From positions 18,537-82,536 of the IMG/VR virus record IMGVR_UViG_3300029305_001221: a DNA stretch of 64,000 nt. One strand, given 5' to 3'. Under the pieces are notes generated by a model. It searched no databases. It saw only the letters and a program-made list of their open reading frames with translations, and was not told the origin of the DNA. Positions 5,468 through 59,215 of the stretch are shown piece after piece (within the stretch, counting starts at the first letter, position 1; the number at the start of each line of letters is the position of its first letter). Source of the stretch: a virus. Lineage: Duplodnaviria; Caudoviricetes. The translations under genes and the position numbers were made by a program.

Positions 5468-5552
5468 GTAGGAGTGGCGGAATTGGAAGACGTGACAGAT
5501 TTAGGTTCTGTTGCTTTATGGCGTGTGGGTTCAAGTCCCATCTCCTACACCA
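5468..5552 (+). tRNA. tRNA-Leu(TAG)
   Basis: GTAGGAG/CTCCTAC acceptor stem, ACAGA TT TAG GT TCTGT anticodon arm, long variable arm, GTTCAAG, ACCA. Confidence 0.92.
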
Positions 5553-6051: not shown

Positions 6052-6137
6052 GCGGGATTGGCGAAATAGGCAGTACGCTACGGTCTTAAAAACCGTTGGA
6101 GATATCCGTGAGGGTTCGAATCCCTCATCCCGCACCA
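6052..6137 (+). tRNA. tRNA-Leu(TAA)
   Basis: GCGGGAT/ATCCCGC acceptor stem, ACGGT CT TAA AA ACCGT anticodon arm, variable arm GGAGATATCC, GTTCGAA, ACCA. Confidence 0.92.
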
Positions 6138-7470: not shown

Positions 7471-7488
7471 GAAAGGAGTTGATTTCTC

Positions 7489-41790: not shown

Positions 41791-41910
41791 ACCACCCAAG
41801 GGGGGGGTCTTCGAAAAATACACCCCCTACCCAGATCGCGCGCCTCATTGATATTTTCCCGGGGGTCGATTTTTGAAAAACAATTTCACTTTTCGCCCCC
41901 TGGGTTGTTT
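41791..41910. other. Probable physical genome end (cos region); candidate 9-nt overhang CGCGCGCCT at 41837-41845
   Basis: Intergenic junction between RNAP module and virion module; G8 run 41800-41807, C5 41823-41827, CCCGGGGG around 41858-41865. Confidence 0.5.
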
Positions 41911-41947: not shown

Positions 41948-43576
41948 ATGGCCCATGAACATAGGATCTATGATACTGACAGGCATTTTCAGATCAATCC
42001 TGTTACTCGAGCAATTTCTAATCCCAGTAACAAGGTAACTCTTATTCAGTATGACCATAATTCAGAGCTGTTCGGCTTTGAGATTCCGCGTTATGTCGAC
42101 GGCCACGACATGTCGCTCTGTAATCGCGTCGAAGTTCATTATATTAACATCGGTGCGAAGTCTCAGAATACTGGTTTATACGAAGTAACTGATTTACAGG
42201 TTCTTCCCGAAGATGAGGATATAGTTACTTGTACCTGGCTTATTTCTCAGAATGCAACACAGCTTGTCGGTAGTCTTCATTTCATTGTTAGATATGCTTG
42301 TGTCGAGGAAGATAATACAATTTCCTATAACTGGAACACGGCAATTTATTCTAGCATTAAGGTCTCGAGCGGTATCTATAACTCTGAGCATGTGATCGAT
42401 CAGTATGCCGACATTCTCGAGGAGTGGAAACAGGCTCTCTATGCAGAAGGTCTTAAGATTAGTTCTGTTGAACAGACTGTTGTCTCCACAGAGGATAGTG
42501 GTGTAAATGAGTTTACCTTTACCATGACTGACGGTAGTAAAAACATTTTCATCGTGAGAAATGGTTCCAAGGGTGATATTGGTAATCCTTTCACTTATGA
42601 GGATTTTACTGCTGAACAGTTGGCAGCACTTACTGGACCGACTGGCTCCTCCATCAAGACTATCACTAGAACTTCTGGCACTGGAGCTGCTGGTACCATC
42701 GACACTTACACGGTCGCTATGACCGATGGTTCAACTTCGACTTTCCAGGTTTATAATGGCGCTGATGGTGAGGATGGAGCCTCTATTCAGTCTATTACTC
42801 GAACTTCTGGTACAGGTGCCGCTGGTACTACTGACACTTACACCGTTACTCGGACTGACGGAACTGTGTGTGGCACCTTTAATGTCTATAACGGCGCTAA
42901 CGGAACAGGTGCTGGCGATATGACTATGGCTGTCTATGATCCTCAGGGAAAGGCGCAGGATATTTTTGCTTATGTCGATAACGCAATTAGCGACATTCCG
43001 ACTCCTGATGTATCCGGACAGATCAAGATTCATAATACCGACACCACTGCTCACGCGGATATTCGTGCTGCCATAGACGCGATTGAGATCCCGACGGTTC
43101 CCACCAAGGTGAGTGCGCTTGAGAATGATAGTGGCTATATAACTGCAGACGTAATTCCCACGGATGTAAGCGCTTTTACGAATGATAGCGGCTATATCAC
43201 TACAGATGCAATTCCTACGAAGACTAGCGAATTGACTAATGATAGCGGTTATATCACCGAAAGCGCAGTTCCTACGAAGACTAGCGAATTGACTAACGAT
43301 AGCGGCTATATCACTACAGATGCAATTCCTACGAAGACTAGCGAATTGACTAATGATAGCGGTTATATCACTGCAGACGCAATTCCTACGGTTCCTACGA
43401 ATGTTAGCGCTTTTACAAATGATAGTGGCTATATAACCGCGGAAGCAATTCCTACGATTCCGACCAACGTAAGCGCGTTCACGAACGACAGCGGTTATGC
43501 GACTGAGACATATGTGGACTCCGCTATCGGCGATATCGCTACTGTACTCGATTCTATTAATGGCGAGGTGATCTAA
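41948..43576 (+). CDS. Virion fibre/adhesin with BppU-like N-terminal domain, collagen-like triplets and NDSGY repeats
   Basis: N-terminal QYDHNSE-F-FEIPRYVDGHDMSLCN domain shared with 52307 and 58634; GxxG triplets. Confidence 0.72.
   Translation: MAHEHRIYDTDRHFQINPVTRAISNPSNKVTLIQYDHNSELFGFEIPRYVDGHDMSLCNRVEVHYINIGAKSQNTGLYEVTDLQVLPEDEDIVTCTWLISQNATQLVGSLHFIVRYACVEEDNTISYNWNTAIYSSIKVSSGIYNSEHVIDQYADILEEWKQALYAEGLKISSVEQTVVSTEDSGVNEFTFTMTDGSKNIFIVRNGSKGDIGNPFTYEDFTAEQLAALTGPTGSSIKTITRTSGTGAAGTIDTYTVAMTDGSTSTFQVYNGADGEDGASIQSITRTSGTGAAGTTDTYTVTRTDGTVCGTFNVYNGANGTGAGDMTMAVYDPQGKAQDIFAYVDNAISDIPTPDVSGQIKIHNTDTTAHADIRAAIDAIEIPTVPTKVSALENDSGYITADVIPTDVSAFTNDSGYITTDAIPTKTSELTNDSGYITESAVPTKTSELTNDSGYITTDAIPTKTSELTNDSGYITADAIPTVPTNVSAFTNDSGYITAEAIPTIPTNVSAFTNDSGYATETYVDSAIGDIATVLDSINGEVI
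43090..43510 (+). repeat. Seven coding tandem repeats of about 57 nt (19 aa, IPTKTSELTNDSGYITxxA)
   Basis: NDSGY x7; near-exact DNA duplication at a 114-nt period around 43191-43370. Confidence 0.9.
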
Positions 43577-44472
43577 TGGGAACGATTGTTGATAAGTTGA
43601 ATAAACTCCTTTCTACGAAGAATGCGATTAAGGCTTCTATCATAGCTAAGGGTCAGACTATTTCCGATACCGACCCCTTCGCTAGCTACCCCGCAAAGAT
43701 CGATGCCATTGAGACCGGAGTTGACACGAGCGACGCTACAGCTACTGCTGGCGATCTACCAGAAGGTGTGACTGCTTATGTTAATAGTGAGAAGGTAACT
43801 GGTACTGTTCCTGTAAGTAAGGCCGGAAGCTCTTTACCATCTGATTATTACACAGTAGGTGTAAGCGCAAACGGAGTCGTTGCAAGAGGTAAGGTAACAT
43901 CTGACTACTTAGTTCGCTCTGGTGGATATACCAGAATCGAGATTCCCGCAGAAAATTTCGGTGACGCTACCGCCGTCGATGTTGCTTCCGGCAAGACCTT
44001 CACTAGTGCTGCTGGTTTGAAAGTTACCGGTACCATGGTTGCAGATGGTTGGGAAAAAGTTCAATTCATGCTCGAAGGTTCCGGAGAAGCTAGTTTGTCG
44101 ACTGATATTTACGGCAACGGCGTGTTTTATATAGATTTCGCATCTCCTATATCGGATTTTTGCGGTTTATCTATATTTTACGAATACGATGATGGTCCTG
44201 GTTATCAATCGTATGCTTCGTCTATTGTGCCCGGATTTAGTGATGATACGTTTATAGGTATGTATCATAATTTTGACTGGGCTAATGAAGATTCTGATGG
44301 ATTTATTTCTGGAACAGAGGGAGACGCCCTCTATGATTGGGGTATTACTGCTTCCTTAGTATCGTCCACGAGAATTAAAGTAGATATGAACGAATTAGGC
44401 AATTGGCTCATGGACTCTAGTGATGCTAGCGGTCACTATGGGACCGGAACCGTCTTTGTCAAATACGTATAA
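43576..44472 (+). CDS. Tail fibre-like virion protein
   Basis: DKLNKLLSTKNAIKASIIAKG N-terminus and DATATAGD...TAYVN-EKVTG repeat typical of phage fibres. Confidence 0.65.
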   Translation: MGTIVDKLNKLLSTKNAIKASIIAKGQTISDTDPFASYPAKIDAIETGVDTSDATATAGDLPEGVTAYVNSEKVTGTVPVSKAGSSLPSDYYTVGVSANGVVARGKVTSDYLVRSGGYTRIEIPAENFGDATAVDVASGKTFTSAAGLKVTGTMVADGWEKVQFMLEGSGEASLSTDIYGNGVFYIDFASPISDFCGLSIFYEYDDGPGYQSYASSIVPGFSDDTFIGMYHNFDWANEDSDGFISGTEGDALYDWGITASLVSSTRIKVDMNELGNWLMDSSDASGHYGTGTVFVKYV

Positions 44473-44512
44473 TAATATACACACGCTGCCAATGTTAAAA
44501 GGAGGAATGTCC

Positions 44513-45337
44513 ATGTCTGTTTATAAAATTCCTCGCAAAATTGCACGCTTTGAGATTTTTCGACCCAAGACGACGTTAAAGTCCTGGCTATCGAAACAGT
44601 CGGATAAACCTGATATTCTGTTTAATGCGAGCTTATATACAGGCTCATACGTTCCATGTGGCACGATATGGAACGATGGGGAATTAGTTAGCAACCAGGG
44701 TAAAGGTTTCGGCTTCGGTACAGTTGATAAAAAGACTGTTGAATTTGGACAACCTTGGGACAAGAAATGGTACGATTTTATAACCGGTTATTATGGGCTT
44801 GTCCAAAACGGTAAAGCTATCGACCCTCCCTGGAAGGACGCTTATGTATTCGACAAAGCTCTGAACCGTATCGCTTTTGGTCAACTTAAGTCCGGAGAAT
44901 TCGCAATATTCTGTGAAAATGGAAAAACCATCAAGCAGTATGCTGTCGATGCGGAACGAGCTGGTTTCAAATCCCTCTGTAATCTGGACGGCGGAGGTTC
45001 CAGAGCCCTCTATTGGCTCGGCAAGTGGGTTCACACTAGCACGAGAACTCCGTACAACGCCGTCGCTATATGGTTGGAGCCAAAGAAAACTATCGTAAAA
45101 CCATCTATAAGTGCTGGTAAAGAGGTGAGTTCTGTGCAGGTAGTCTGTAATGCGAAGACGAAAGTCTACAATTCTAGTGGTAAAGTCGAAATTGGTCGCT
45201 ATATCACCAAAGGCGACATTTGTGAACTGACGAACAAACTAGACCTCGACAATCTTCAGGTTGAGATCATCTATCCTGCAGGTGTCAACATGCGAACTGC
45301 GTATATTAAAGACTTGGCTAATTTTACCAAACTATAA
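44513..45337 (+). CDS. Phosphodiester glycosidase (NAGPA-like) domain protein with a possible SH3-like C-terminus
   Basis: FNASLY, NRIAFG, NLDGGGS motifs. Confidence 0.75.
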   Translation: MSVYKIPRKIARFEIFRPKTTLKSWLSKQSDKPDILFNASLYTGSYVPCGTIWNDGELVSNQGKGFGFGTVDKKTVEFGQPWDKKWYDFITGYYGLVQNGKAIDPPWKDAYVFDKALNRIAFGQLKSGEFAIFCENGKTIKQYAVDAERAGFKSLCNLDGGGSRALYWLGKWVHTSTRTPYNAVAIWLEPKKTIVKPSISAGKEVSSVQVVCNAKTKVYNSSGKVEIGRYITKGDICELTNKLDLDNLQVEIIYPAGVNMRTAYIKDLANFTKL

Positions 45338-45355
45338 AATCATTAATTAAGGTCG

Positions 45356-45390
45356 GGAGGGGATGCATAGTGCTTCTCCTCTCTATATCT
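45356..45390 (+). terminator. Possible terminator
   Basis: GGAGGGGATGCA TAG TGCTTCTCCT CTCTATATCT. Confidence 0.45.
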
Positions 45391-45415
45391 TATTACTAAG
45401 GAGGTTATATAACAT

Positions 45416-47365
45416 ATGTCTTTTAACGCACGAATTAAAAACAAAAGAGACACAGCTTCCAATTGGGAAACCAACAATCCGATACTGTTAGCCGGTGAAT
45501 TGATCATCGTCGATACCAATGCAGGTGACGTCAGATTCAAGATCGGTGACGGTACCAAAACCTACACTCAGCTTCCGTTCCAGGACGAATCGTTATATAA
45601 CGTCCTGAGTACTAAGGCCGATTCCGCCGATCTAGAGTCTCTTCAGGCTTCCATCGTTCAGTCCGACCTCTCTCAGACCGACTCCACTCAGATTGACTAC
45701 GTGAAGGGTGTTCTTAGAAATGAGCATCTACCCGAGGGGTATCCGTATAAGAGCGAAGAAACCATTCTGGATGGTACTTTTGAGTTTGTAGACAGTGATG
45801 GTGTGTATATGCGCCAGATCGCGGATGAGAACTTTACCTATGTCGATGGTAAATCTTATACTGTTATTTGGGATGGCGAAGCTTATCAATGTGTTGCTAC
45901 TACCGTTTATAATATACCTGTACTTGGAAATCTTGGGATTGCGGGTATGACCGATACAGGCGAACCGTTTTTGTTCATGGATCAGGGCAATGGTCAGAAA
46001 ATTATTGGAACAAACGACACTGCCGCTACTCATACGGTTACCGTTTGTGCGGAAATCGCCTACCCCATGTCCGAGGAGTACTTGCCTGACCATACTCACA
46101 GTCAGTATCTAACCGCTATTCCTAGTGAATACGTCACTGAGACTGAACTGACCGCTAAAGGTTATCTAACCGCTATTCCTAGTGAATACGTCACTGAGAC
46201 TGAACTGACTGCCAAGGACTATGCTACCAAGACCGAAGTGGCAGCTAAGGCCGATTCCGCCGATCTAGAGTCCCTTCAGTCTGAATTCGATGACCATACT
46301 CACGACTTCTCCGAACTGACCGTCACCGATCCCGAAGCTGCCAAGACCGCTCTCGCTATTGAGAATGGGATGGTGCTGAAGAATCTGCAGGCGGCGATGC
46401 CGAGTTCTAAAATCTGGAATACGGTCGCCTACGGTAACGGTAAGTTTGTAGCAGTAACATCTAGCGCTAGTTCTAAAATCATAGCATACAGTGAAGACGG
46501 TGTCACCTGGACATCTGCTGGCCTGCCTACGTCTTCAAAATGGAACTCCATTACCTATGGTAACGGTAAGTTTGTAGCATTGGCGTATTCATCCAATCTT
46601 GTAGTATACAGCGAAGATGGTATCACTTGGAATTATGCCACACTCCCTATTAGTGACATTCGGATTGCCGTCGCCTATGGTAACGGTAAGTTTGTAACAT
46701 TAGAACGTGGGGGTGACGCCGCAGCATATAGCGAAGACGGTATCGCTTGGACTGCTACCACGTTGTCTATTATTAAAAATTGGAGCTCCATTACCTATGG
46801 TAACGGTAAGTTTGTAGCAATATCGGAATCTGCTACTGCAGCATACAGCGAAGACGGTATCACTTGGACTGCTACTACTATGCCTAACAATGGCAATTGG
46901 AAGACCGTCATCTACGGTAATGGAAAGTTTGTAGCTGTGGGAAGCGGTGAGACCATTGCGGCCTATTCCGAAGATGGTATCGCGTGGGCTGCTACTAATA
47001 ATATGCCTATTGGTCAAAGATGGTGGTCTGTCGCTTATGGTAATGGTAAGTTTGTAGCAACAGCGGAGTCTTCTGATATTGCAGCATACAGCGAAGACGG
47101 TATTACTTGGACTGCTACTACTATGCCTGGGTCTAAAAACTGGTATTCCGTCGCCTACGGTAATGGTAAGTTTGTAGCTGTGTCAAATGATGTTGCAGCA
47201 TATAGCGAAGACGGTATCACTTGGCATTCCGAACTTAAGATGATCACCCAAAATGGAGAAGATGTCACTGCCGACACTCTGATCGTCCTGGATCACACTC
47301 ATGATGAGTATCAACGTACTCTGACTATCACAGACGATGGCGCCGGTAATGTAGTCATTTCTTAA
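45416..47365 (+). CDS. Receptor-binding-type protein: Mtd_N/hyaluronidase-like N-terminus + 7-bladed YGNGKFV beta-propeller
   Basis: NWETNNPILLAGE...FKIGDG; 7 x W..YGNGKFV...YSEDG.W; 60-nt duplication YLTAIPSEYVTETELTAK. Confidence 0.78.
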   Translation: MSFNARIKNKRDTASNWETNNPILLAGELIIVDTNAGDVRFKIGDGTKTYTQLPFQDESLYNVLSTKADSADLESLQASIVQSDLSQTDSTQIDYVKGVLRNEHLPEGYPYKSEETILDGTFEFVDSDGVYMRQIADENFTYVDGKSYTVIWDGEAYQCVATTVYNIPVLGNLGIAGMTDTGEPFLFMDQGNGQKIIGTNDTAATHTVTVCAEIAYPMSEEYLPDHTHSQYLTAIPSEYVTETELTAKGYLTAIPSEYVTETELTAKDYATKTEVAAKADSADLESLQSEFDDHTHDFSELTVTDPEAAKTALAIENGMVLKNLQAAMPSSKIWNTVAYGNGKFVAVTSSASSKIIAYSEDGVTWTSAGLPTSSKWNSITYGNGKFVALAYSSNLVVYSEDGITWNYATLPISDIRIAVAYGNGKFVTLERGGDAAAYSEDGIAWTATTLSIIKNWSSITYGNGKFVAISESATAAYSEDGITWTATTMPNNGNWKTVIYGNGKFVAVGSGETIAAYSEDGIAWAATNNMPIGQRWWSVAYGNGKFVATAESSDIAAYSEDGITWTATTMPGSKNWYSVAYGNGKFVAVSNDVAAYSEDGITWHSELKMITQNGEDVTADTLIVLDHTHDEYQRTLTITDDGAGNVVIS

Positions 47366-47380
47366 AGGGGCTGATAATTC

Positions 47381-49555
47381 ATGAAAGAGATGAAGACATT
47401 AAAGTTCCCTAATCAAGACGAACCTTATGAAATCGTAGATGCTCATGCTAGAAGTCAAATATCTAATGCGCAACAGAAAATAAGTCATATTATTGAATCA
47501 ATGTCTATCTCTACAATTGAGCCATCAGATGATGACATTCCAAAAGTTTTTATTGATGGCGCAATGCCTACGACAAAAGATGATGTGTCTGCTGAATTGA
47601 CCTATATTTCAAAAACACTTAGTTTTCATTCATACGTAACAATTAAATGTCAAGGCACATCTTCTATGAAATATCCGAAAAAGAATTACACCATCAAGTT
47701 GTTTACAGACGAAGATCGTACAATAAAACTAAAAAATAATTTTAGAGGATGGGGAGAACAAAATAAGTTCTGTTTAAAAGCAAACTGGATTGATTTATCG
47801 CATTCACGAAATATTGTCTCTGCAAGACTTTGGGGAGACATTGTAAAGTCTCGTGAAAATTATAATGAGCTACCAGAAATGCTACGTACCAGCCCCAACC
47901 AAGGCGCGATCGATGGATTCTTTATAAAAGTATACTACAATGGTGTGTATCAAGGGCGTTACACATGGAATATTCCAAAAGATGCTTGGATGGCAAATAT
48001 GGATGACGAACTTGATACGCACTGTATTCTTTGTGGAGAAAACTATGATGGCGGATGTTTCAGAGCATTACCAATTATAGACGAGTCGGACTGGTCAGAT
48101 GAAGTTCATGATACCTGCCCTGATAGTATAAAGGCTAGATGGACCGAAGTAGTAAATTTCATTATGACCAGTTCTGACGAAGATTTTAAGGCGAACTTGA
48201 GTAGTTATTTCGATATTAAAAGCTTGATTGACTATCATATATTTGGTCTAGCCATGTGTGGACTTGACTCATATGGTAAAAACCAAATATATATGACATA
48301 TGACGGCAATAAATGGATTGCTTCAATGTATGATTTAGATAGCACTTGGGGTTTGTATTGGAATGGCGAAACGCTTGTCTCTTCGGATTATGCTCGTACT
48401 AGCTTTGAAGATATGGTAAATGGTCGCCAAGGAAACTTGCTATATGAGCGTTTAGAGCAAAATTTTTATGAAGATTTACAAACAAGATGGGAATGTTTGA
48501 AAAATAATGCATTGTCATTGACAAATATTATCAATCGCTTTGAGCGATTCACAGATACAATGACTTCCGACTTAATAAAAGAGGATTATGCTTCTACTAC
48601 TGCCAACGGTGGTTATACTGGCATCCCGTCTATAGCAAAAAATAACATTCAACAGATAAGAAATTTTGCTGCATCAAGACGCACTTGGACTGACGAGTAT
48701 TTAGAGTCTCTCACTCCTATTGTAAGAGTTCCTTGTATCGGCATCACCTTGTCTGCAAATGAGCTTGCGTTTACAGAAAAGGGAACTCAAACTATAGTTG
48801 CGACAGTTGAACCTACAGATACTACTGACAAGATTGTATGGATAACTAGCGATGAAAATGTTGCAACTGTTGATAATGGAGTTGTAACTGCTGTGTTTAA
48901 TGGTAATGCGACTATCACCGCGACTTGTGGTGACTACTCTGCGACATGTTCTGTTGCAGTTAGTGGTATCGAAGAACCTAGTATTCCTGACGAACCTGAT
49001 GAAACCATACTTTATAGCTTACCTGCTGTAACAGAATTCGATGGTACAAATTATATTGATACTGGAGTTGCTCCGTTGGCAACAGATGTCCCATTTACTA
49101 TTTTCATAGATTGGACTCATACAGGCGAGAGTGATTTCGTTGGAAGTATGCATGTTATTGCTCATGCGATGACAGAAAATACTCCATACCCCGGAATTAT
49201 CTTACAATATAATAACAATGGTATCGTTTCTGAATATAGACAAGGATCTAATACGATTTCTTCTAACTCTACTTCTGCTCTTATTGAAAACGCCGATTTA
49301 CAGCGAGTTAAAGTAATATTCAGAAAAGAAGCCGATGGATATATCACAGTATCTAGATGTTACAATGAGAATGGTCAAATTCACACCAATAGAAAACAGA
49401 TCGATTATGTCGCTGTTCCTGAAGAACTGCGTCTCGGCTGTTATCGTTCTAATGTTGGTGGAACAGGCCGTTTTGCAAAGGGTATCATGAACGATTGTAA
49501 GATTTACAATTATGCATTAAGTGATGAAGAAATTCAAGAGCTTATTGCATCTTAA
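47381..49555 (+). CDS. CotH-kinase-like domain + Big_2 Ig domain + LamG-like domain
   Basis: QGTSSMKYPKKNY, CLKANWID, KN...YDLDSTWG; V-P-DTTDKIVW-TSD..VATVDNGVVTAV..G.ATITAT. Confidence 0.75.
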   Translation: MKEMKTLKFPNQDEPYEIVDAHARSQISNAQQKISHIIESMSISTIEPSDDDIPKVFIDGAMPTTKDDVSAELTYISKTLSFHSYVTIKCQGTSSMKYPKKNYTIKLFTDEDRTIKLKNNFRGWGEQNKFCLKANWIDLSHSRNIVSARLWGDIVKSRENYNELPEMLRTSPNQGAIDGFFIKVYYNGVYQGRYTWNIPKDAWMANMDDELDTHCILCGENYDGGCFRALPIIDESDWSDEVHDTCPDSIKARWTEVVNFIMTSSDEDFKANLSSYFDIKSLIDYHIFGLAMCGLDSYGKNQIYMTYDGNKWIASMYDLDSTWGLYWNGETLVSSDYARTSFEDMVNGRQGNLLYERLEQNFYEDLQTRWECLKNNALSLTNIINRFERFTDTMTSDLIKEDYASTTANGGYTGIPSIAKNNIQQIRNFAASRRTWTDEYLESLTPIVRVPCIGITLSANELAFTEKGTQTIVATVEPTDTTDKIVWITSDENVATVDNGVVTAVFNGNATITATCGDYSATCSVAVSGIEEPSIPDEPDETILYSLPAVTEFDGTNYIDTGVAPLATDVPFTIFIDWTHTGESDFVGSMHVIAHAMTENTPYPGIILQYNNNGIVSEYRQGSNTISSNSTSALIENADLQRVKVIFRKEADGYITVSRCYNENGQIHTNRKQIDYVAVPEELRLGCYRSNVGGTGRFAKGIMNDCKIYNYALSDEEIQELIAS

Positions 49556-49587
49556 AATTAAAACTTCTTTTTAGGAGGTTGATTATA

Positions 49588-50253
49588 TTGAAAGAAATGA
49601 AAACTCTGAAATTTCCTAATCAGGAAGAAGCGTACGAAATTGTAGATGCTCATGCGAGAGAACGTATCGATGAACTTGAAGCTCTTCAGTCTGAAGTCGA
49701 CGGTAAACAGAATGTCCTCACCGGCACTGAAGGTCAGATTGTCGGTTTCGATGCCTCTGGTAATGCTGTTGCCACTGAGATGCCTGCTTCTGGTCTTCCG
49801 ATCGTCACCACTGATGGCGGTGATGGTTCCTATTATACTGCCACTGTTCCGGGTATCACTGCGCTGACTCCTGGTATTACTTTCATCATGATTCCTCATG
49901 TTGACAGTACGTCCACTCAGCCGGCTCTTAAGGTTAACGGTCTGACTTCTAAAATGTTGAACAGACAGGTTTCTGCCAGCATCACGTTTGCTACGGCTGC
50001 TACCGATGCAAATTGGCTTCCTGCTGGTTATCCGGTCCAGGTCATGTATAACGGCTCGAAGTGGATTGTCAAGGATCTGCCTAAGCCTTATGCTGCTGAT
50101 CTGTATGGTACTGTTCCTATCTCTAAGGGTGGTACTGGCGTAACTTCTATCGAGGACACCGTGTATACTACAGCTCGATACCGAGCATCCGCACTTGTAA
50201 GTTCGGAGACCGATCCTACTGTTAACGGCGTGATTAACTGGACTTACGAATAA
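49588..50253 (+). CDS. Tail fibre-like protein; shares its first about 23 aa with 47381
   Basis: KEMKTLKFPNQ..YEIVDAHAR; YTATVPGITALTPG...LKVNGL. Confidence 0.68.
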   Translation: MKEMKTLKFPNQEEAYEIVDAHARERIDELEALQSEVDGKQNVLTGTEGQIVGFDASGNAVATEMPASGLPIVTTDGGDGSYYTATVPGITALTPGITFIMIPHVDSTSTQPALKVNGLTSKMLNRQVSASITFATAATDANWLPAGYPVQVMYNGSKWIVKDLPKPYAADLYGTVPISKGGTGVTSIEDTVYTTARYRASALVSSETDPTVNGVINWTYE

Positions 50254-50267
50254 GGAGGTGTTGACCT

Positions 50268-51114
50268 ATGGCACACAAAACGCTTGTAGGTGGCACAGCC
50301 TATGAAGTAAGCGGTGGCAAGACCCTTGTGGACGGTACTGGCTACGAAATCGCAAAAGGAAGAACGCTTGTAGGCGGTACTGGCTATGATATTCCGTTTA
50401 CTAAATCGTATCTTGTGAGAATCACAGGAGGGTGGGATATTCAAGCAGGCTCTACTTGCTATGTGATGATTGGCGGTGTGACATATAACACAGACCAAGA
50501 ACTTTGGGTTGAAGAAGGAACTTCAATTGTAGTGTATTGCGGTGGTACAGAGAGATTGGGTAGCGGTAATATCCGAGTTATATCCACGGACAATGGCGCT
50601 CAATCGGTTGCAACCGCAACTTATCCAAGCAAAGCGAGTTATGATTACACTAAACTCTTCAATGCTGAAACTGAAATCTATATCACAATGGGCAGTTCAA
50701 ATAGTCGTGTAGTTTCTATCACTTCAAACGATACACAGGCAGAAATCCTAAGTAATACGCTATAAGGGGGAATAAACCATGACTTATGTAAAAATCAACG
50801 GTAACCTTTACCCGGCTAATATCGAAGGTAAGATGAATGATCGGGAATGGGACAACCGTGCTAGTAAAACCATCAAGCTGGAAATGACCCACTCTGAAGC
50901 CGACTCTATTTTTGTGGATGGCTTGATCTGGGACATCATCATGGATGTGGATCAGCCTCAGGAAGACGGCTCTATTATCACTGTTCAGGAAGAATACGAC
51001 AACAGCGAATTCTGCGTAGCTGGCGACATCACTGACCATCGTGACGGTACTCTGTCCGTTAAGATGGGTAAGTTCACCACTGAAGAGATGCTGCTGATGG
51101 AGGTGCTGGCATGA
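50268..51114 (+). other. Fibre-associated small CDSs 50268-50765 and 50779-51114
   Basis: RBSs; position after the fibre gene. Confidence 0.7.
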
Positions 51115-51251
51115 AAGTAAGCGCTAATTCTATTCGCATCCTATATCGCGCTGGTAAGATCACTATTGAAGGCGTGAAGCAGGCTTACGACCGCGGTTGG
51201 ATTACTGCCGAGGATTATGAAAAGATCACCGGCGAAGTCTACGCTGCTTAA
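51111..51251 (+). CDS. XkdX-family small protein (46 aa), not in the ORF track
   Basis: GVKQAYDRGWITAEDYEKITGEVY. Confidence 0.75.
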   Translation: MKVSANSIRILYRAGKITIEGVKQAYDRGWITAEDYEKITGEVYAA

Positions 51252-51310
51252 AATTCAAAATGGAGTAAATGACTCATACACAAGCATACTCCTAGGCTAA
51301 AACTCAAATC

Positions 51311-51491
51311 GGTCCAAACCAAGATAGCATTAGCAAGGGTTCATAGGGGTCTTCCTCCTACACCTCCTTTCACATATTTAGCGCGCCATCTCTCCCCTGG
51401 CAGCGCTTTATTTCTTTTTCATGGGTTCTTTGCTCCTTTCAGACCCGACGATCTCTATGAACCCTTACCAATGCTATCTTGGTCTTGGACC
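51311..51491. ncRNA. Candidate structured ncRNA: long closing stem, multiloop with SD/anti-SD motifs; minus strand slightly favoured
   Basis: 51311-51352 pairs with 51441-51491; the two A.C mismatches become G.U on the minus strand; inner hairpin 51380-51407. Confidence 0.7.
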
Positions 51492-51552
51492 TAAAATACA
51501 AATCTAATGCAAAATCATATTAACAAAATCTATCGGAGAGGAGGCAGTAAAT

Positions 51553-51897
51553 ATGGCAAAAGCTAAATCTACAGGCTCGTCTACTACAAGAAAGATGAGA
51601 CCCGCATTAACCCCAGAGGCTAGAGAGAACCAGCTGATCGCTTTAGCAACAGATCTTGTAGAGCAGCGACTAATCGATGGTACTGCCTCTTCGCAAGAGA
51701 CTACACATTTTCTTAAGCTCGCCACAACGAAGGCGAGGCTTGAACGTGAGATTCTCGAAAAGCAGAAAGAGCTTATCGTCGCTAAGACCGAGACTCTGCA
51801 GTCTGCTAAGAGAATGGATGAGATGTATCAGGAGGCCATTAAGGCTATGAGTCGATACCAAGGACATGGTGATCCAGATGAAGAAGACGATTATTAG
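51553..51897 (+). CDS. Probable terminase small subunit-like protein
   Basis: Helical 114-aa protein overlapping an HNH gene near the putative genome left end; no decisive motif. Confidence 0.45.
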   Translation: MAKAKSTGSSTTRKMRPALTPEARENQLIALATDLVEQRLIDGTASSQETTHFLKLATTKARLEREILEKQKELIVAKTETLQSAKRMDEMYQEAIKAMSRYQGHGDPDEEDDY

Positions 51898-52300
51898 AAC
51901 ATATTCCGAACTGATCACTCTGCCGACTTTTGAAGAGCGATATCGCTATCTGCAACTCAATGGAGCAGTTGGCAAGGATACGTTTGGTTTCGACAGATAT
52001 ATCAATCAACAATTTTATAGGTCTAAAGAATGGCAAAGAATTAGAGACGAAGTGATTATTCGAGATAATGCATGCGATTTAGGGATGGAAGGCTACGAGA
52101 TTCATGGTCGTATTTACGTTCATCATATGAACCCGATCATGGTCCGAGATATCCACTCTAATAGCAACTATCTCATGAATCCAGAGTTTCTGATATGCAC
52201 AACTCATCGAACCCATAATGCTATCCACTATGGCGATGAAGACCTGCTTGCCAGAGCTCCGATCGAGCGAACAAAAAACGACACATGCCCTTGGAGGTGA
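51866..52300 (+). CDS. HNH endonuclease (packaging-associated type)
   Basis: FYRSKEWQRIRDEVIIRD..C...VHHMNP...N...L...H..IH. Confidence 0.82.
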   Translation: MVIQMKKTIIRTYSELITLPTFEERYRYLQLNGAVGKDTFGFDRYINQQFYRSKEWQRIRDEVIIRDNACDLGMEGYEIHGRIYVHHMNPIMVRDIHSNSNYLMNPEFLICTTHRTHNAIHYGDEDLLARAPIERTKNDTCPWR

Positions 52301-52306
52301 TGATCT

Positions 52307-55300
52307 ATGGCGCATTCGCACAGTGTAAAAGACTCTGATTCGTATTTTACTATTAATCCAGCAACCAGGTCGATTGAAAACAAGTCTGGAAAGTTGACCC
52401 TCGTCCAGTACGACCACAATTCCGAGCACTTCACTTTCGAAATGCCTAGATACATCGAGGGTCATGACATGTTGTTATGTAATAAAACGGAAATTCATTA
52501 TAACAATATAAGCGATGCTAAGACTAACCCAGGTCTTTATCCGGTATCGGACATGCGAACCAAGCCTGACCACGATGATCGTATCGTTTTCACTTGGCTT
52601 ATTTCCAGGAATGCTACGAAACTTGTCGGTCGTTTGGCGTTTATCGTTCGATTTGCATGTGTATCCGATGAAACTATCGTCGAATATGCCTGGAACACAC
52701 AGCCGTATAGCGATATTAAGATTGTGACTAGCATCAACAATACAGATGCCATTACCGACGAGTTCGAGGACCAGTATACTGACGTTCTCGCTGAATGGAA
52801 GAATAATTTCATTGGACTTGAGGAAGCTGAGGCCATCCAATCCCAATTAGATCTAAAAGGCGATAGTCTCTACTTCGATACGACTACCAATTTATTGTAT
52901 TTAATGAGTAATGGTGAAATCGTTGGCGATGGTGTGGCTGTAGCAGCATCTGGAGGTGGCGGCGGTGGTGGAGGTACCACTACCGAGTACACTATCACAC
53001 TTAAGAATCTCCTAGACGATCGAGTTTTTTCAGTCCCCGGAGGGTCTAGTGTAATTCTGAAATTCTCCTATTCCAGCGTTGATGCCGATGGTTATAGCGA
53101 TGGTTCCGGCGTAGGTACGATTACCATTAATAACATTAAGAAAGCTACGGTTAGCATCAGTCAGGGAGAAAACACTCTCGACATTTCCAGCTATCTCGTA
53201 GATGGTCTCAATACTGTTAAGTTATCTATAGCAAATAGTGAAGGTAGCAGCAGGAGCGTCACTTATACAATAACCGTTGTAACTTTGACTATTAGTACTA
53301 CGCTGGAAGATTTCACAATTCAAAATGGAGATATGACCTTGTATTATACTCCGACTGGCTCGGGTGAGAAGACCGTGTATTTCGATATCGATGACAAAAA
53401 CATCGGTACTCAGTCTGTATCGTCCAGCGGAAAGAGTCAGAGTTATGTCATTCCTGCCCAGTCTCATGGCGGTCACATCTTGGAACTCTACGCGAGTATG
53501 ATAAATGGTGATTCTTTGATCGTCAGCGAGACTTTGAAACGAGGGATTATTTGGGTCGATTCCTCTGATATGACCCCGGTCGTCTTGATTAAATTCGATA
53601 TGGCCAAGGCTACGCAAGGCGAATCTCTTACCATTCCTCATATGGTGTACAATCCGGCAAATGAGACCGCTGACGTTATATATACCGTCTTAAATGAAGA
53701 TGGTAGCGTTTATAGTGAGAAGTCTTTGAGCGTTGGTAGAACGGCTCAGAACTGGATCGTGCAAGATTATCCGCTTGGAAAGGTAACGTTCCGCATCTCC
53801 TGTGGATCGGTTTCTTCGAGTAAGACCGTCACCGTCGAAAAGAGCAACATAGTGATTGAGACCGTCAGTGATTCGCTCGTTCTCGACTTTAATCCTGCCG
53901 GCAGAACCAACCAGGAAGCAACTCCCGCTACTTGGACTGATGGTAATGTCACTGCTACATTCACGAACGTCGGTTTCTCTGGAGCAGATGGTTGGCTGGC
54001 AGATAGTGATGGATCTTCTAAACTGCGAATTCTACCTGGCGGTGAGATGACGATTCCGTATCAGCTTTTCGCCTCTGACCGAAGAGACTCTGGTCTGACT
54101 GTTGAAGTTGAAATGGCTACGCATAACGTGCGAGACTACGATAGCATCGTCTTGTCTTGTCTATCGGGTGGTCGAGGCTTCAAAGTGGCTTCTCAGTATG
54201 CGCAACTTAACTCTGAGCAGTCTAGCATTTCCATGCAATTTAAGGAAGACGATCGAGTACGACTGACCTTTGTGGCCGAGCCGAAAGCTTTGAACCGTCT
54301 GATTTACGTTTACGTAGACGGCGTCATGTGTGGCTCGATCCAGTATCCTGAGGACGATAACTTCCAGCAGAATCCGGCAACCGGTATCACTATTGGCGCC
54401 GAGAGCTCGGGTATCGATATTTATCGAATTCTGCTGTATACGAAGGGTTTGAGTCGAAACGAGGTTCTGGACAACTATATCGCTGGCAGAGCAACTCTGC
54501 AGGAGCGATTGACCGCCCATGCACGTAACGATATTTTAAGTGTTGCTGAGGAATTAGTGATTTCTAAGCTCCCCGCAACTCTTCCTTATATGATCATCGC
54601 ATGCCCTGAACTCCCGCAGTTTAAAGACGATAAGAAGACTTGCACGATCACTTATGTGAATACTGCAGATCCTTCTAAGAGTTTTACTGCCGAGGGCGTG
54701 CAGATCGATGTTCAGGGTACCTCTTCGGCAGGTTATAAGAAGAAGAACTTTAAACCTAAGTATAAGAAGGGCTTTACCTACACGTCGACTGGCGAGTTCA
54801 GCGAGACCTATAAACTTCGGGATAATTCGATTCCTGTATCGGTATTTTGTTTAAAGGCTGACGTCGCTTCGTCTGAAGGTGCAAACAACGTAGAATTGGT
54901 TCGTTTCTATAACGACGTGTGCCCTTATATTCATCCCGCTGCCGCATCCGATAATCGTGTTCGTTGGGGTATCGATGGCTTGCCGATCGTTGTGTTCTGG
55001 CAGAATACGGATACGGGTGTGGTTAAGTTCTGGGGTAAGTACAATGCGAACAATGATAAAAGTACCGCAGAAACATACGGTCTAACTAATGGATGCGAAT
55101 CTTGGGAAATTTGTAACAATACCAGCGACCGTGTCATCTTCAAGAAGAGTGACTATGGTGATGGCTGGACCAGTGACTTCGAAGCTCGCTATCCTGAGGA
55201 TAATCTCGACTATACTAATCTTAAACGCCTGACAGATTGGTTGGTATCCACCGATCGTTCTGCGGTCGATACTGACGAAGAGAAGACTGCTCGACTTGAG

Positions 55301-57841
55301 AAATTCAAAATGGAGTTCGAGGACTACTTCGTCAAAGAACCGACCCTGTTCTACTATTTATTCACTGAAGTATTTCTGATGGTGGATAGTAGAGCTAAGA
55401 ACTTCTTCCCATCTACGTATGATGGTATACATTGGTTGCCGCTTCCTTACGATATGGATACTGCTATCGGCATTAACAACGAAGGCGCCCTGGTCTTTGA
55501 TTATGACTTGGAAGACACTGACGTTATCGATGGAGCAGATGTATTCAACGGTCAGCATTCCGTTCTTTGGTGTAACGTCCGTGATGCATTCTACGATGAT
55601 ATCAAAGATATGTATGCTGAACTCCGAGGCGGCACTCTGTTTAATTACGATACCATTATCAAGCGTTTCAGCGACCATCAGACCGTGTGGCCTGAGGTTG
55701 TCTGGAACGAAGATGCCTGGGAGAAGTATCTTGAACCTCTTATTAATGATAAAGATGGTTCATATTTGACTATGCTTCAGGGTAGTAAAGCCAGCCAGCG
55801 TGAATGGTGGTTATATAACGGTTTCAGATACCGTGATAGCAAATACCAGACTGGCGACGCTCAGAAGCAATATATTACTCTTAGATGCTACGCGGTCGGT
55901 AATATTACTGTCACCCCGTATTCACACATTTGGCCTCGTATTAAGTACGGTTCTTATCCCGTGACTGAACGCGGTAAGCGAAACGTGCCTGTTACCCTGG
56001 AATGTCCGCTTGATAATATGAACGATACCGAAGTCTATATCTATTCTTCGGATCGATTGATTGACATCGGCGACCTTTCTCACCTTATGGTTGGCTATGC
56101 TAACTTCTCCATGGCTAACAAACTTACGAGCTTGAAACTTGGCGACGGGGCGGAAGGTTATCAGAATACGAGATTGAACGAGCTATATGTCGGTAACAAC
56201 GAACTATTGACTAGCCTGGACATTCGTAATTGTGCGAATTTGACCATGACTGTCGATCTTAGCGGTTGCGCTGGCCTTGAGACTATTGAAGCAGAAGGAA
56301 GTAGCGTGACTGGTTTCACCCTTCCAATTGGTGGCAATCTTCAGACCATGCATCTGCCTGGCACGATGACAAACTTGACCCTGCGTAACATGAAGCAGCT
56401 CACGGAGTTGACGATGGAAGGTTATTCCGCGTTGACTACTCTCCGTATCGAAAATACTCCTAACGTTCCCCTGGAGACCATTATTAATGGCGCCAGTAGC
56501 CTTGAACGTGTGAGACTAGTCGATATTGAGTGGACTGCCACAGACGAGGCTTCACTAACCACAACGATTAATCGTTTGAAGACCTGCGGAGGTCTTAATG
56601 CAGATGGTAGTAACAGTACTTCTGCGGTTATTAACGGCAGAGTTTATGTCGATAGTGCGTCTGATGAATTGTTAGAGACTATTTACACTAACTTCCCCGA
56701 TCTGGTGGTTGTTGTTGCCGGCTCTGTGAGTTATCTGGTTCGTTATCTGGATTACGATGGTACTCTGCTGTATAGCGTGTTGCTTGGAGAAGGCGAAGAT
56801 CTTATCGATCCTGTTGAAGCTGGACTGATTGATGTTCCTACACGAGAACTCTCTGATGAGAGTATCTATGTATACGCAGGATGGTCTGAGAATCCGACAA
56901 ATATTACTAGAAACTATACCCTGGTTGCGCAGTATGTTATCGCCCATCGTGTTCGTTTTCTCGTGGATGACAATGTGTATGATATTCAGTGGATAATCGC
57001 TGGTGAAAGCGCAGTCATTCCAGCTAATCCTACGAAAGATAGTACCGTCCAGTACGTGTATACGTTCGATTCGTGGGATATGGATCATACCAATATCGCT
57101 GCTCCGACTGATATTTCTGCTATATTCGTAGCGACTCTTCAGGTTTACACCGTGTCTTTCTATAACGGAACAGTATTATTACAGACTGTCACTGCTGAGT
57201 ATGGTAGCGACGCTGTATATACTGGCGCTACGCCGGAGTATGACGAGGTGGACTATGAGTTCTACGGATGGAATCCAGAGCCTATCGCTATTACCGGAAA
57301 TATGAACTGCTATGCGAAATTTAAGTATACCGGTCTATATTCTGTTAAGATCGCGGACCGCACGCTTGCTGGATCGTATGAGAATGATCGAGTTACTTCG
57401 GTTGGTCTTTATACATTCTATAGCTGCCCCGACTTAGAGTCTATAAGTCTACCTTCTGCGACTTCTATTGGTAGAAACGCGTTTAGGTATTGCTACGCAT
57501 TGACTAATGTCAACATCCCGAGCGTGAAGACGCTTGATAGCTCTGCGTTTAGTTACTGCACAGCACTGACGAGAATCGATATCCCTGCGGTGACATCTAT
57601 CGCCAATCAGGCATTTTATAGATGCTCCGCGCTGAATACTTTGATTCTGCGCAGTAATACAATGTGCGCTCTAACGGGTACTAATGTATTTGTCGATACG
57701 CCGATTGCGGATGGTACTGGTTATATTTACGTTCCGGCTGCTCTGCTTGAGGAGTATATCTCTGCAACAAACTGGAGTGCTATGGCCGATCAATTCCGCG
57801 CTATTGAAGACTATCCTGATATTACTGGAGGTGCCGCATGA
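52307..57841 (+). CDS. 1844-aa multidomain virion protein: BppU-like N-terminus, LamG-like, CotH-like, LRR, InlB B-repeat-like, BspA-type LRR C-terminus
   Basis: Shared N-terminal domain; QGTSSAGYKKKN, CLKADVASSE, KN...PYDMDTAIG; Y.V.F...F.GW repeats; SIG..AF..C..L repeats. Confidence 0.78.
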   Translation: MAHSHSVKDSDSYFTINPATRSIENKSGKLTLVQYDHNSEHFTFEMPRYIEGHDMLLCNKTEIHYNNISDAKTNPGLYPVSDMRTKPDHDDRIVFTWLISRNATKLVGRLAFIVRFACVSDETIVEYAWNTQPYSDIKIVTSINNTDAITDEFEDQYTDVLAEWKNNFIGLEEAEAIQSQLDLKGDSLYFDTTTNLLYLMSNGEIVGDGVAVAASGGGGGGGGTTTEYTITLKNLLDDRVFSVPGGSSVILKFSYSSVDADGYSDGSGVGTITINNIKKATVSISQGENTLDISSYLVDGLNTVKLSIANSEGSSRSVTYTITVVTLTISTTLEDFTIQNGDMTLYYTPTGSGEKTVYFDIDDKNIGTQSVSSSGKSQSYVIPAQSHGGHILELYASMINGDSLIVSETLKRGIIWVDSSDMTPVVLIKFDMAKATQGESLTIPHMVYNPANETADVIYTVLNEDGSVYSEKSLSVGRTAQNWIVQDYPLGKVTFRISCGSVSSSKTVTVEKSNIVIETVSDSLVLDFNPAGRTNQEATPATWTDGNVTATFTNVGFSGADGWLADSDGSSKLRILPGGEMTIPYQLFASDRRDSGLTVEVEMATHNVRDYDSIVLSCLSGGRGFKVASQYAQLNSEQSSISMQFKEDDRVRLTFVAEPKALNRLIYVYVDGVMCGSIQYPEDDNFQQNPATGITIGAESSGIDIYRILLYTKGLSRNEVLDNYIAGRATLQERLTAHARNDILSVAEELVISKLPATLPYMIIACPELPQFKDDKKTCTITYVNTADPSKSFTAEGVQIDVQGTSSAGYKKKNFKPKYKKGFTYTSTGEFSETYKLRDNSIPVSVFCLKADVASSEGANNVELVRFYNDVCPYIHPAAASDNRVRWGIDGLPIVVFWQNTDTGVVKFWGKYNANNDKSTAETYGLTNGCESWEICNNTSDRVIFKKSDYGDGWTSDFEARYPEDNLDYTNLKRLTDWLVSTDRSAVDTDEEKTARLEKFKMEFEDYFVKEPTLFYYLFTEVFLMVDSRAKNFFPSTYDGIHWLPLPYDMDTAIGINNEGALVFDYDLEDTDVIDGADVFNGQHSVLWCNVRDAFYDDIKDMYAELRGGTLFNYDTIIKRFSDHQTVWPEVVWNEDAWEKYLEPLINDKDGSYLTMLQGSKASQREWWLYNGFRYRDSKYQTGDAQKQYITLRCYAVGNITVTPYSHIWPRIKYGSYPVTERGKRNVPVTLECPLDNMNDTEVYIYSSDRLIDIGDLSHLMVGYANFSMANKLTSLKLGDGAEGYQNTRLNELYVGNNELLTSLDIRNCANLTMTVDLSGCAGLETIEAEGSSVTGFTLPIGGNLQTMHLPGTMTNLTLRNMKQLTELTMEGYSALTTLRIENTPNVPLETIINGASSLERVRLVDIEWTATDEASLTTTINRLKTCGGLNADGSNSTSAVINGRVYVDSASDELLETIYTNFPDLVVVVAGSVSYLVRYLDYDGTLLYSVLLGEGEDLIDPVEAGLIDVPTRELSDESIYVYAGWSENPTNITRNYTLVAQYVIAHRVRFLVDDNVYDIQWIIAGESAVIPANPTKDSTVQYVYTFDSWDMDHTNIAAPTDISAIFVATLQVYTVSFYNGTVLLQTVTAEYGSDAVYTGATPEYDEVDYEFYGWNPEPIAITGNMNCYAKFKYTGLYSVKIADRTLAGSYENDRVTSVGLYTFYSCPDLESISLPSATSIGRNAFRYCYALTNVNIPSVKTLDSSAFSYCTALTRIDIPAVTSIANQAFYRCSALNTLILRSNTMCALTGTNVFVDTPIADGTGYIYVPAALLEEYISATNWSAMADQFRAIEDYPDITGGAA

Positions 57842-58443
57842 GTGATTTTATCAACACGACCGATGTCTTAGGTGACGATGCGGTATGCGATGGGATGATC
57901 ATGAAGACTTTGTCAGAGTATGCAGACAGTCACGTCACCACTATAGGCGATTATGTGTTTTATAACTGCAATAAACTGACGAAGCTCGATCTACCAAACG
58001 CCGCGTCAATCGGGGTATTCGCGTTCTATGGCTGTTCGGCGATGAAGACTATTAATCTACCTGTTGCAACACTGATCGATAACTATGCGTTCTACAACGG
58101 TTATGCACTTGAATCGGTGAATACTCCGCTTGTAACAGAAATTGGTAAATCTGCATTTCGGTATTGTACAAAACTCGCATCGATCGACCTACCTTCGGCG
58201 ATACTGATCGACTCGTATGCGTTCTATAACTGTACGTCTTTAACTGCGATTATCCTACGCAGCGAAACGACGTGCGAATTGACCGACACAAATGTATTTA
58301 CCAATACTCCGATTGCCGATGGTACTGGTTATATCTACGTGCCTAGCACACTCGTAGAAATATATCAAAATGGGACCAATTGGTCTCTCTATTCCAGTCA
58401 ATTCCGAGCTATCGAAGACTATCCCGATATCATTGGAGGTTAA
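57838..58443 (+). CDS. BspA-type leucine-rich repeat protein
   Basis: TIGDYVFYNCNKLTKLDLPNAASIGVFAFYGC repeats; C-terminus paralogous to the upstream gene. Confidence 0.85.
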   Translation: MSDFINTTDVLGDDAVCDGMIMKTLSEYADSHVTTIGDYVFYNCNKLTKLDLPNAASIGVFAFYGCSAMKTINLPVATLIDNYAFYNGYALESVNTPLVTEIGKSAFRYCTKLASIDLPSAILIDSYAFYNCTSLTAIILRSETTCELTDTNVFTNTPIADGTGYIYVPSTLVEIYQNGTNWSLYSSQFRAIEDYPDIIGG

Positions 58444-58445
58444 AT

Positions 58446-58616
58446 ATGATTGTAACTGAACATTTTACCACTCGCTCCGATGGTGTTGAGCTTATTCGCA
58501 CCTATTCTGATGCTGGTATGATGATTGAACGGGATGGTATTCGCTATTCCGAGGCTGTGGACCCTATTCATATTGGTAGGGTCTACACCGAAACAACCGA
58601 GCGAGTAGAAGAATAG
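58446..58616 (+). CDS. Small hypothetical protein (56 aa)
   Basis: GGAGG RBS before ATG 58446. Confidence 0.7.
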   Translation: MIVTEHFTTRSDGVELIRTYSDAGMMIERDGIRYSEAVDPIHIGRVYTETTERVEE

Positions 58617-58633
58617 AAAGGAGATGATACCAG

Positions 58634-59197
58634 ATGGCACACGCTCATAATATTGTTGATTCGGATCTACACTTTACGATCAATCCTTTGACTAGAGTGA
58701 TTTCGAATAAGACTAATAAGATTACTATTATCCAGTATGACCATAACTCCGAGCGGTTTACTTTTGAGATCCCCAGATATGTTGATGGACATGATATGTC
58801 GCTTTGTAACAAGGTAGAAGTTCACTACAACAACATCGGAACCTCGGGTAAGAGTCAGGATTCTTACGAAGTCACAGACCTTGCGATTAGTCCCGTTGAT
58901 GAAAATCTTGTTACCTGTAGCTGGCTGATCTCTAATACCGCGACTAAGTATGCCGGACAGTTGAACTTCCTTGTCCGATATGCTTGCATGACTGACGATA
59001 CCATCGACTATGCCTGGAGTACAGCAATCTATTCTGGCATATCCATTTCCAACGGCATCTATCACGGTTCTGATGTCACAACGGTTGTTGATACTGCCGA
59101 TGCGACCGCAACCGCCGAAACTATTCTTAGTGGTTATACCGCTTATGTGAACGGTAGAAAGATTACCGGCACGTATGTACCGCCCGCAACTACTTAA
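58634..59197 (+). CDS. BppU-like domain protein with a DATATA fibre repeat
   Basis: Third copy of the QYDHNSE domain. Confidence 0.75.
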   Translation: MAHAHNIVDSDLHFTINPLTRVISNKTNKITIIQYDHNSERFTFEIPRYVDGHDMSLCNKVEVHYNNIGTSGKSQDSYEVTDLAISPVDENLVTCSWLISNTATKYAGQLNFLVRYACMTDDTIDYAWSTAIYSGISISNGIYHGSDVTTVVDTADATATAETILSGYTAYVNGRKITGTYVPPATT

Positions 59198-59215
59198 TTA
59201 AAAGGAGGCTCACTC

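Follow-up and report, generated by a model that had tools for sequence, protein, structure and literature searches.

Pyrimidine motifs complementary to the Shine-Dalgarno (SD) sequence are displayed in unpaired or loop regions of RsaE/RoxS, of the RNAIII hairpins of Staphylococcus aureus and of actinobacterial 6C, a small RNA whose C-rich loops bind SD regions (PMC6486639). In the icaR mRNA, the anti-SD motif UCCCCUG of the 3′ untranslated region pairs with the SD of the same molecule, and the resulting duplex is the RNase III site (PMC3868564). Long intergenic stems with possible excision of a small RNA are represented by the R sites of phage T7, the N leader and sib of phage lambda and CJnc190, which is released by RNase III (PMC8687705). 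The element analysed here is a long hairpin at positions 51311–51491 of a 64,000-nt stretch of a Caudoviricetes virus (IMG/VR record IMGVR_UViG_3300029305_001221, positions 18,537–82,536), hereafter the phage. This whole stretch is called the window. All coordinates refer to it and all features described lie on its plus strand, unless stated otherwise. The hairpin is a member of a new, widespread structured-RNA family of Oengus- and 1706-like cos phages of Firmicutes.

The kinds of element are known, namely the anti-SD-displaying regulatory RNA and the long-stem processing site. New are the long covarying clamp around a multi-motif loop, its presence once per phage and its location at the cos-proximal boundary between early and late genes. 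The element resembles RsaE/RoxS, RNAIII and 6C in its SD-complementary loop motifs. In contrast to these RNAs, it is phage-encoded, neither a promoter nor a terminator of its own can be recognised, and its motifs lie inside a clamp stem of 28–44 bp in a presumed polycistronic phage transcript. Its motif is CUCCUUUC instead of UCCC/CCCC, and no sequence or Rfam similarity to these RNAs was seen. With icaR, it shares an anti-SD in cis on the same RNA and RNase III as a likely partner. Unlike in icaR, the long duplex of the element is separate from the proposed SD pairing, and no co-variation with a cognate SD was seen. The RNase III sites of T7 and lambda have no conserved loop motif, unlike the element, for which cleavage is predicted. 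The cabRNA of staphylococcal phages (PMC10686824) is likewise a structured phage RNA from the neighbourhood of the packaging genes. It lies within the terS-terL coding sequence and is defined by its sensing by the host cyclic-oligonucleotide-based anti-phage signalling system (CBASS).

A family of covarying hairpins

The stem is formed by a 5′ arm (51311–51354) and a 3′ arm (51447–51491), which align at 44 positions around an interior of 92 nt. In the phage copy, 39 of these positions are Watson-Crick pairs, two are G.U pairs on the plus strand, two are A.C and one is a transversion. The inverted-repeat scan reported 51318–51354 and 51447–51483 as arms of 37 nt with 86% complementarity. A preliminary description, made from the sequence alone, had proposed a long inverted repeat with a stem of about 40 bp at this site, and every feature listed in it, including two CTCCTTTCA 9-mers, the word CCTCCT and a hairpin loop TCTCTCCCC, was present where it had been placed. 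Folding energies were −79.1 kcal/mol for the plus strand (z −10.7) and −86.7 kcal/mol for the minus strand (z −8.9). On neither strand was any of 200 shuffled sequences as good. The element was present as a single copy in the 64-kb window and in the 82.5-kb virus record.

No known RNA family accounted for the hairpin, as the preliminary description had proposed. Only three tRNAs passed the gathering thresholds of Rfam 15 in the 64-kb window, and a permissive Rfam search of 51200–51600 gave a best match of only 14.8 bits (E = 1.5). A blastn search with the 401-nt region gave no match among cultured phages, and the publications on this phage group that were consulted do not mention the element.

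Related copies were sought in 80 related loci, and 38 non-redundant copies were aligned (alignment A1). Inverted repeats were found in most of the 80 loci, with arms of 22–40 nt and interiors of 35–165 nt. RNAalifold returned one 28-bp helix for A1, which starts at 51321 in the 5′ arm and finishes at 51480 in the 3′ arm of the phage copy. Changes on both sides of the helix were found for 27 of its 28 pairs. The covariation check suggested in the preliminary description thus gave a very strong result. Paired cells made up 93.9% of the core, compared with 70.2% after shuffling of the partners (observed value reached in 0 of 500 shuffles) and 34–48% when the partners were slid by one to three columns. 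The covariation score was 0.788, compared with 0.307 for shuffled partners.

A covariance model built for the family (R1; 121 positions, 28 pairs) gave one strong sense-strand match per genome in 16 of 17 whole genomes. Among the 80 loci, it found 66 matches, 61 of them full-length and five cut at a contig end. Closer relatives of the phage and one human faecal phage record were also matched. Two cultured hosts of the element are available: the FP_oengus prophage of Faecalibacterium prausnitzii, matched at 37.8 bits, and Lactococcus phage 1706, with a weak match (22.6 bits, E = 0.0013) that lies 40 nt from its left end. The element was not found in Streptomyces phage ClubPenguin or in the examined stretch of Rhodococcus phage ReqiPoco6. 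Where present, it always has the orientation of the genes and occupies an intergenic spacer that separates the right-end RNA-polymerase operon from the packaging block of gene 1, HNH endonuclease, connector and TerL.

The element is flanked by a 14-nt imperfect direct repeat, CTAAAACTCAAATC, with a left copy at 51297–51310 and a right copy at 51491–51504 (12 of 14 positions identical). Terminal inverted repeats within a direct repeat of this kind could indicate a miniature inverted-repeat mobile element with its target-site duplication. However, each genome holds a single copy, which is syntenic across the clade, and the near-identical element of the closest relative, L135, lacks the left repeat. 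The mobile-element explanation was therefore rejected, its remaining probability being vanishingly small. The repeated word is part of the A-rich leader present after the element in every relative. The 14-nt repeat was read as a recombination scar of this leader rather than as a target-site duplication. The leader itself (51492–51552) consists of repeated (A/T)AAAA(C/T) words and the SD of gene 1, GGAGAGGAGG (51535–51544). Another repeat was noticed in relative G017 (L121:1150–1200), in which an extra copy of the 3′-arm end, AATGCTATC, lies just upstream of the element and is able to pair with the outer 5′ arm. This copy might form a small alternative hairpin or represent what is left of a duplication.

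Strand preference of the stem

The cells of the 28-bp core in the 38 copies comprised 890 Watson-Crick pairs, 100 G.U pairs on the sense strand, 20 A.C oppositions, which would be G.U on the opposite strand, and 44 other combinations. Base composition alone gives an expected G.U to A.C ratio of 1.3, whereas the observed ratio was 5. The G.U pairs were spread over 22 of the 28 core positions. They were in excess in 32 of the 38 copies and fewer than A.C in only one. At one core position, G.U was the commonest state and alternated with G-C and A-U. Between the phage copy and those of L134 and L135, which are 97% related to the phage, the 3′ arm shows three substitutions, all between C and T, and each of them preserves or improves pairing on the plus strand (G.U to G-C, A.C to A-U and G-C to G.U). 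In phage 1706, the long stem forms on the plus strand (z −3.9) and not on the minus strand (z −1.6).

Given the 100:20 bias, the stem is very probably selected in a plus-strand transcript. Neither a protein-binding palindrome in duplex DNA nor a cruciform can yield this asymmetry, whereas a plus-strand RNA can, as can, less plausibly, a plus-strand single-stranded DNA. A hairpin in single-stranded DNA, such as a signal for priming or for single-strand initiation in rolling-circle replication, would fit the single copy per genome and also the strand bias, since G.T is the most stable mismatch in DNA as well. Against this stand the missing link to replication genes, the shift of the element with inserted structural genes and the identity of the loop motif with the anti-SD sequence, which has an obvious meaning at the RNA level. 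Such a DNA function was considered very improbable. A function of the element as some form of plus-strand RNA was considered very probable.

Within the family, the phage copy is unusual in its two A.C pairs, and this had drawn the preliminary description towards the minus strand. This copy is one of the six in which plus-strand G.U pairs are not in excess. The two A.C mismatches are real, and two plus-strand G.U pairs are equally present. A CsrB-like sponge with GGAG motifs, or a ribosome trap composed of an SD and a mini open reading frame (peptide MKKK), had some points in its favour. The phage copy folds slightly better on the minus strand, where the well-spaced sequence SD-ATG-AAA-AAG-AAA-TAA is found, and an ATG follows the SD in 21 of the 38 copies, which is above chance. 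However, there is no ATG in the other 17 copies, and close relatives differ in this respect (L006 and L037 versus L015). The encoded peptides range from 1 to 24 residues and are unrelated. Sponges of the CsrB/RsmZ type have multiple GGA motifs in hairpin loops of the transcribed strand, whereas here the GGAG words are confined to the minus strand and the family structure is selected on the plus strand. Besides the G.U bias, the scores of model R1 also favoured the plus strand, the antisense score being 30–45 bits below the sense score in every genome. All genes run in the opposite direction, and a weak extended −10 proposed for the minus strand was present as TGTTAATAT, but the promoter scan gave no sigma-70-like promoter there. 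A minus-strand product was hence rated highly improbable.

The anti-Shine-Dalgarno loop and its possible role

The interior loop (51355–51446) is 74% pyrimidine on the plus strand and belongs to the top 0.02% of all 92-nt segments of the 64-kb sequence. The word CCTCCT (51354–51359) and CACCTCCTTTC (51361–51371) lie at its start, and the exact CTCCTTTCA copies occupy 51364–51372 and 51433–51441. Two inner hairpins are predicted, one at 51381–51406 with the loop TCTCTCCCC and a second at 51422–51447. The invariant family motif, CTCCTTTC(A), is located at 51433–51441. It complements the ribosome-binding site (RBS) TGAAAGGAG of the phage and is predicted to lie in a small hairpin with a loop of 14 nt. 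In addition, the phage copy contains CACCUCCUUUC, 11 nt that are identical to the end of Firmicute 16S rRNA.

Throughout the family, CTCCTTTC is the only invariant block (alignments A1 and A2). The loop always bears a (U)CUCCUUUC(A) that is predicted to be exposed, often together with one to four further CCUCC-type motifs, some of which lie in the loops of small inner hairpins. A second CCTCC-type word was found in about 22 of the 38 copies, and phage 1706 holds two motifs in hairpin loops. On average, the loops are 63% pyrimidine compared with 47% for the genome strand, and the anti-SD words CTCC/CCTC occur 2.47 times per loop compared with 0.05 for GGAG/GAGG. The predicted probability of being unpaired was 0.78 for the invariant motif and 0.50 for the remaining loop, and the motif was the more accessible part in 32 of 38 copies. 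The stem of the inner hairpin that encloses the motif changes in step, as in GUCAUU/AAUGAC, GUCGUU/AACGAC and GCCAUU/AAUGGU. Exposed SD-complementary pyrimidine motifs of the RsaE/RoxS/6C kind are thus predicted for the family.

Together with its flanks, the motif UCUCCUUUCA is the exact complement of UGAAAGGAGA, the RBS consensus of 24 genes of the window, most of which belong to the early and middle region. The RBS core GAAAGGAG has 24 copies on the plus strand, 21 of them before 37.5 kb, versus four on the minus strand, two of which are inside this loop. Some of these cores, at 7471, 26848, 30655, 36879 and elsewhere, stand directly behind a candidate phage promoter motif, and the respective messages would therefore begin almost at their SD. 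Duplexes between loop and SD were predicted at about −18 kcal/mol. The proposal in the preliminary description that the plus strand displays an anti-RBS sequence was favoured by the strand test and by the exact complementarity of the invariant loop motif to the RBS consensus TGAAAGGAGA.

The tentatively preferred reading, at a probability of roughly 45%, is that the element is an anti-SD display at the RNA level, within or cut from a long rightward transcript, which lowers translation. The element would be part of a transcript that crosses cos after circularisation of the genome. Its exposed pyrimidine motifs could pair with SD sequences and reduce translation, either of the next gene downstream or, in trans, of the many phage messages that begin with UGAAAGGAGA (GAAAGGAG type). 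The stem of 28–44 bp would hold the loop open and protect the RNA. It is also a plausible substrate of RNase III and could release the loop as a discrete small RNA. The enzyme requires a nearly uninterrupted RNA duplex of at least about 20 bp, and the core offers 28 bp in the family and the stem about 44 bp in the phage copy.

Several observations weigh against this reading. The scan for promoters and terminators found neither at the element. Contigs from three RNA libraries, derived from relatives with 85–95% identity, begin at about 51517 or 51525, extend rightwards over the coding part alone and leave the hairpin uncovered. Among public reads, one DNA run contains a 331-nt contig that is identical over 51234–51564. 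A hairpin in plus-strand single-stranded DNA would show the same G.T bias. Support for the inner hairpin is modest, its stem having reached at least 6 bp in 24 of 38 copies versus 14.7 expected. With a single RNA copy per transcript, titration would be weak. Finally, the predicted pairing with the cognate downstream gene (−18.3 kcal/mol) was no better than that with genes of other phages (−17.8 kcal/mol, p = 0.14). Pairing is therefore feasible with any SD, and a specific target in cis is not supported.

A pure processing or stability hairpin, i.e. an RNase III site or a barrier to decay that divides the message of the polymerase operon from that of the packaging and structural genes, would not need a pairing role for the loop motifs. 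RNase III sites of this sort are used by T7 and lambda. The stem exceeds the length that the enzyme requires, and the element is always intergenic and on the path into the late genes. One RNA contig of a relative ends just past the 3′ arm, which is a weak hint in the same direction. This explanation leaves the extreme pyrimidine bias unaccounted for, as well as the invariant, exposed CUCCUUUC amid a loop that otherwise drifts, and it was regarded as rather unlikely. A regulatory RNA of transcription at the entry of the late operon was regarded as decidedly unlikely. It could be a put- or EAR-like antitermination element or an attenuator, working with the host polymerase or with a YonO-like one. 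In its favour, the single, orientation-specific copy always lies upstream of most late genes and is tied to no one gene, and the phage encodes its own two-barrel RNA polymerase. However, the element bears no likeness to the antitermination families of Rfam and has no U-tract. An intrinsic terminator, i.e. a G+C-rich hairpin with a U-tract, was absent from 50900–51700, the 3′ arm being followed by CTAAAATACAAATC. In relative G021, moreover, the element lies before cos, at the extreme end of the virion DNA.

The anti-SD display could also go beyond the pairing with individual messages. A stable small RNA excised from the late transcript might mimic the 3′ tail of the 16S rRNA, either as a global translation switch or as a decoy for the anti-SD tail, a possibility that was thought unlikely. 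If true, the mimic might shut off early and middle messages with UGAAAGGAGA or host messages, and the decoy might engage a host factor or a defence that acts on the anti-SD tail. A translation-reprogramming RNA would then be present in one of the commonest phage groups of the human and animal gut. Oengus alone was found in up to 40% of human viromes (PMC5883640). The single copy, the covariation, the invariant anti-SD loop and the lack of an Rfam family together make the element a common, unstudied regulatory part of gut phages. The two cultured hosts provide a testable case of an rRNA-tail-like phage RNA that might control translation or message processing at the boundary between early and late genes.

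Position relative to cos and genomic neighbourhood

The cos region of the phage (41790–41880) consists of a hairpin with a G run, a predicted 3′ overhang of 9 nt, CGCGCGCCT (41837–41845), and the palindrome CCCGGGGG (41858–41865). It lies 9.4 kb upstream of the hairpin, and a block of fibre genes (41948–51251) is located in between. Homologous sequence forms the physical ends of more than 25 related IMG/VR contigs, and ClubPenguin has it at its left end. In these contigs, the homologue of gene 1 is found 100–300 nt from the contig end, and the ends coincide at C(C/T)TT.A.ATT(C/T)YCCGGRGG. One complete relative has a right end of CCCTTCAT directly followed by an adapter and a left end of adapter directly followed by CTTTATATT. 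A second relative reads across cos as CCCTTCAT CGCGCCGGT CTTTATATT. The adapter-bounded ends fit a 9-nt 3′ cohesive end that was removed by polishing during library preparation. Overhangs of 9–10 nt at the 3′ end have been documented for 1706-like phages (PMC4110766), and ClubPenguin, the ends of which were determined experimentally, begins with the same cos motif. Illumina adapter remnants were noticed on public IMG/VR contigs at L012:1–32, L006:1–33, the starts of L032, L053 and L060 and the last 26 nt of L085. They are contamination of the records, yet they abut the true cos ends directly and are thus proof of physical termini. The actual cos site and the ends of the genome are established in this way for the phage group.

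The distance between element and cos varies among the relatives. In most of them, the element lies about 44 nt from the left end, just before gene 1. In six genomes (G008, G009, G011, G012, G014 and G015), it adjoins cos, and 1–4 kb of inserted genes precede gene 1. In the phage and in G022, it adjoins gene 1 and is away from cos. Five genomes (G006, G007, G010, G017 and G018) hold it among the inserted genes, 1–2.6 kb from cos and 2.3–5 kb from gene 1, and in G021 it is situated left of cos, at a distance of about 165 nt. A position free relative to both cos and gene 1 fits an autonomous RNA module.

The most frequent arrangement recalls the cosB site of lambda, which holds sites for the terminase small subunit and IHF beside cosN. 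As in lambda, the element of most relatives lies between cos and the first packaging gene, and its two inverted arms enclose a spacer. The arms could accordingly be inverted sites that are bound by terminase or the gene 1 protein and bent round the interior, and co-evolving half-sites could mimic covariation. Unlike cosB, the element is not tied to cos, since their distance reaches 9.4 kb and one relative has the element on the opposite side, and ClubPenguin retains the cos motif and gene 1 with no room for the element. Moreover, a site in duplex DNA cannot produce a 5:1 bias of G.T over A.C. A cosB-like packaging signal is largely refuted by position and was given a very low probability. The preliminary description had named a palindrome acting only in DNA, such as a packaging site, among the outcomes that would refute an RNA interpretation, and both the position and the strand asymmetry of the element argue against it.

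All genes of the phage are on the plus strand. Upstream of the hairpin are a CotH/Big_2 fibre-like protein, three genes of unknown function and XkdX (51111–51251). Downstream, gene 1 (51553–51897; phrog_4259, 114 aa), the first gene after cos in most relatives, is followed by its conserved partner, an HNH endonuclease (51866–52300; phrog_4321). Further downstream are a CotH-like/leucine-rich-repeat (LRR) protein of 1844 aa and, later, a connector protein (PF24829). The preliminary description had called gene 1 TerS. Its position after cos and before HNH and TerL agrees with this name, which is otherwise unproven. Gene 1 had no match in Pfam or NCBIfam, its PHROG family is annotated as unknown function, and the best hit of a PDB profile search was a TetR helix with E = 0.15. 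The AlphaFold model (pLDDT 77.8) consists of a short helix (residues 21–42) and a helix of 58 residues (47–104), with no Foldseek match in the PDB at E ≤ 0.001. The gene 1 family, which is a marker of this phage group, comprises at least 7,988 clusters at 90% identity in public metagenomes. Gene 1 followed by HNH was found at the left cos end of Streptomyces, Arthrobacter, Gordonia, Rhodococcus, Lactococcus and Faecalibacterium phages.

A hot spot for the exchange of genes of the tail-fibre type extends from cos to gene 1, and such genes enter it to the left or to the right of the hairpin. The hairpin itself is a mosaic boundary too, because the homology of L135 to the phage starts at the base of the 5′ arm. 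Compared with relatives of 40–65 kb, two blocks of fibre or adhesin type are inserted in the phage, 41948–51251 between cos and hairpin and 52307–59200 between HNH and the connector gene. They contain DUF4097, CotH/Big_2, XkdX, the 1844-aa CotH-like/BspA-LRR protein and a 201-aa LRR protein. At these two sites, the inserts differ among the relatives. Tail genes also precede gene 1 in ReqiPoco6.

The last large gene before cos (38767–41514) encodes a YonO-like RNA polymerase of 915 aa with a match to PF05183 (RdRP/two-barrel polymerase) and several helix-turn-helix domains. A polymerase of this type marks the group of Oengus, Lactococcus phage 1706 and the actinophage 'BI supercluster' (bioRxiv 10.1101/842583). 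Neither a protein search nor a PHROG_9 profile search of the 82,536-bp record found TerL, and both ends of the record lie inside genes. It is hence a fragment, although CheckV estimated its completeness at 100%. The early region also holds three tRNA genes, at 4241–4314, 5468–5549 and 6052–6134.

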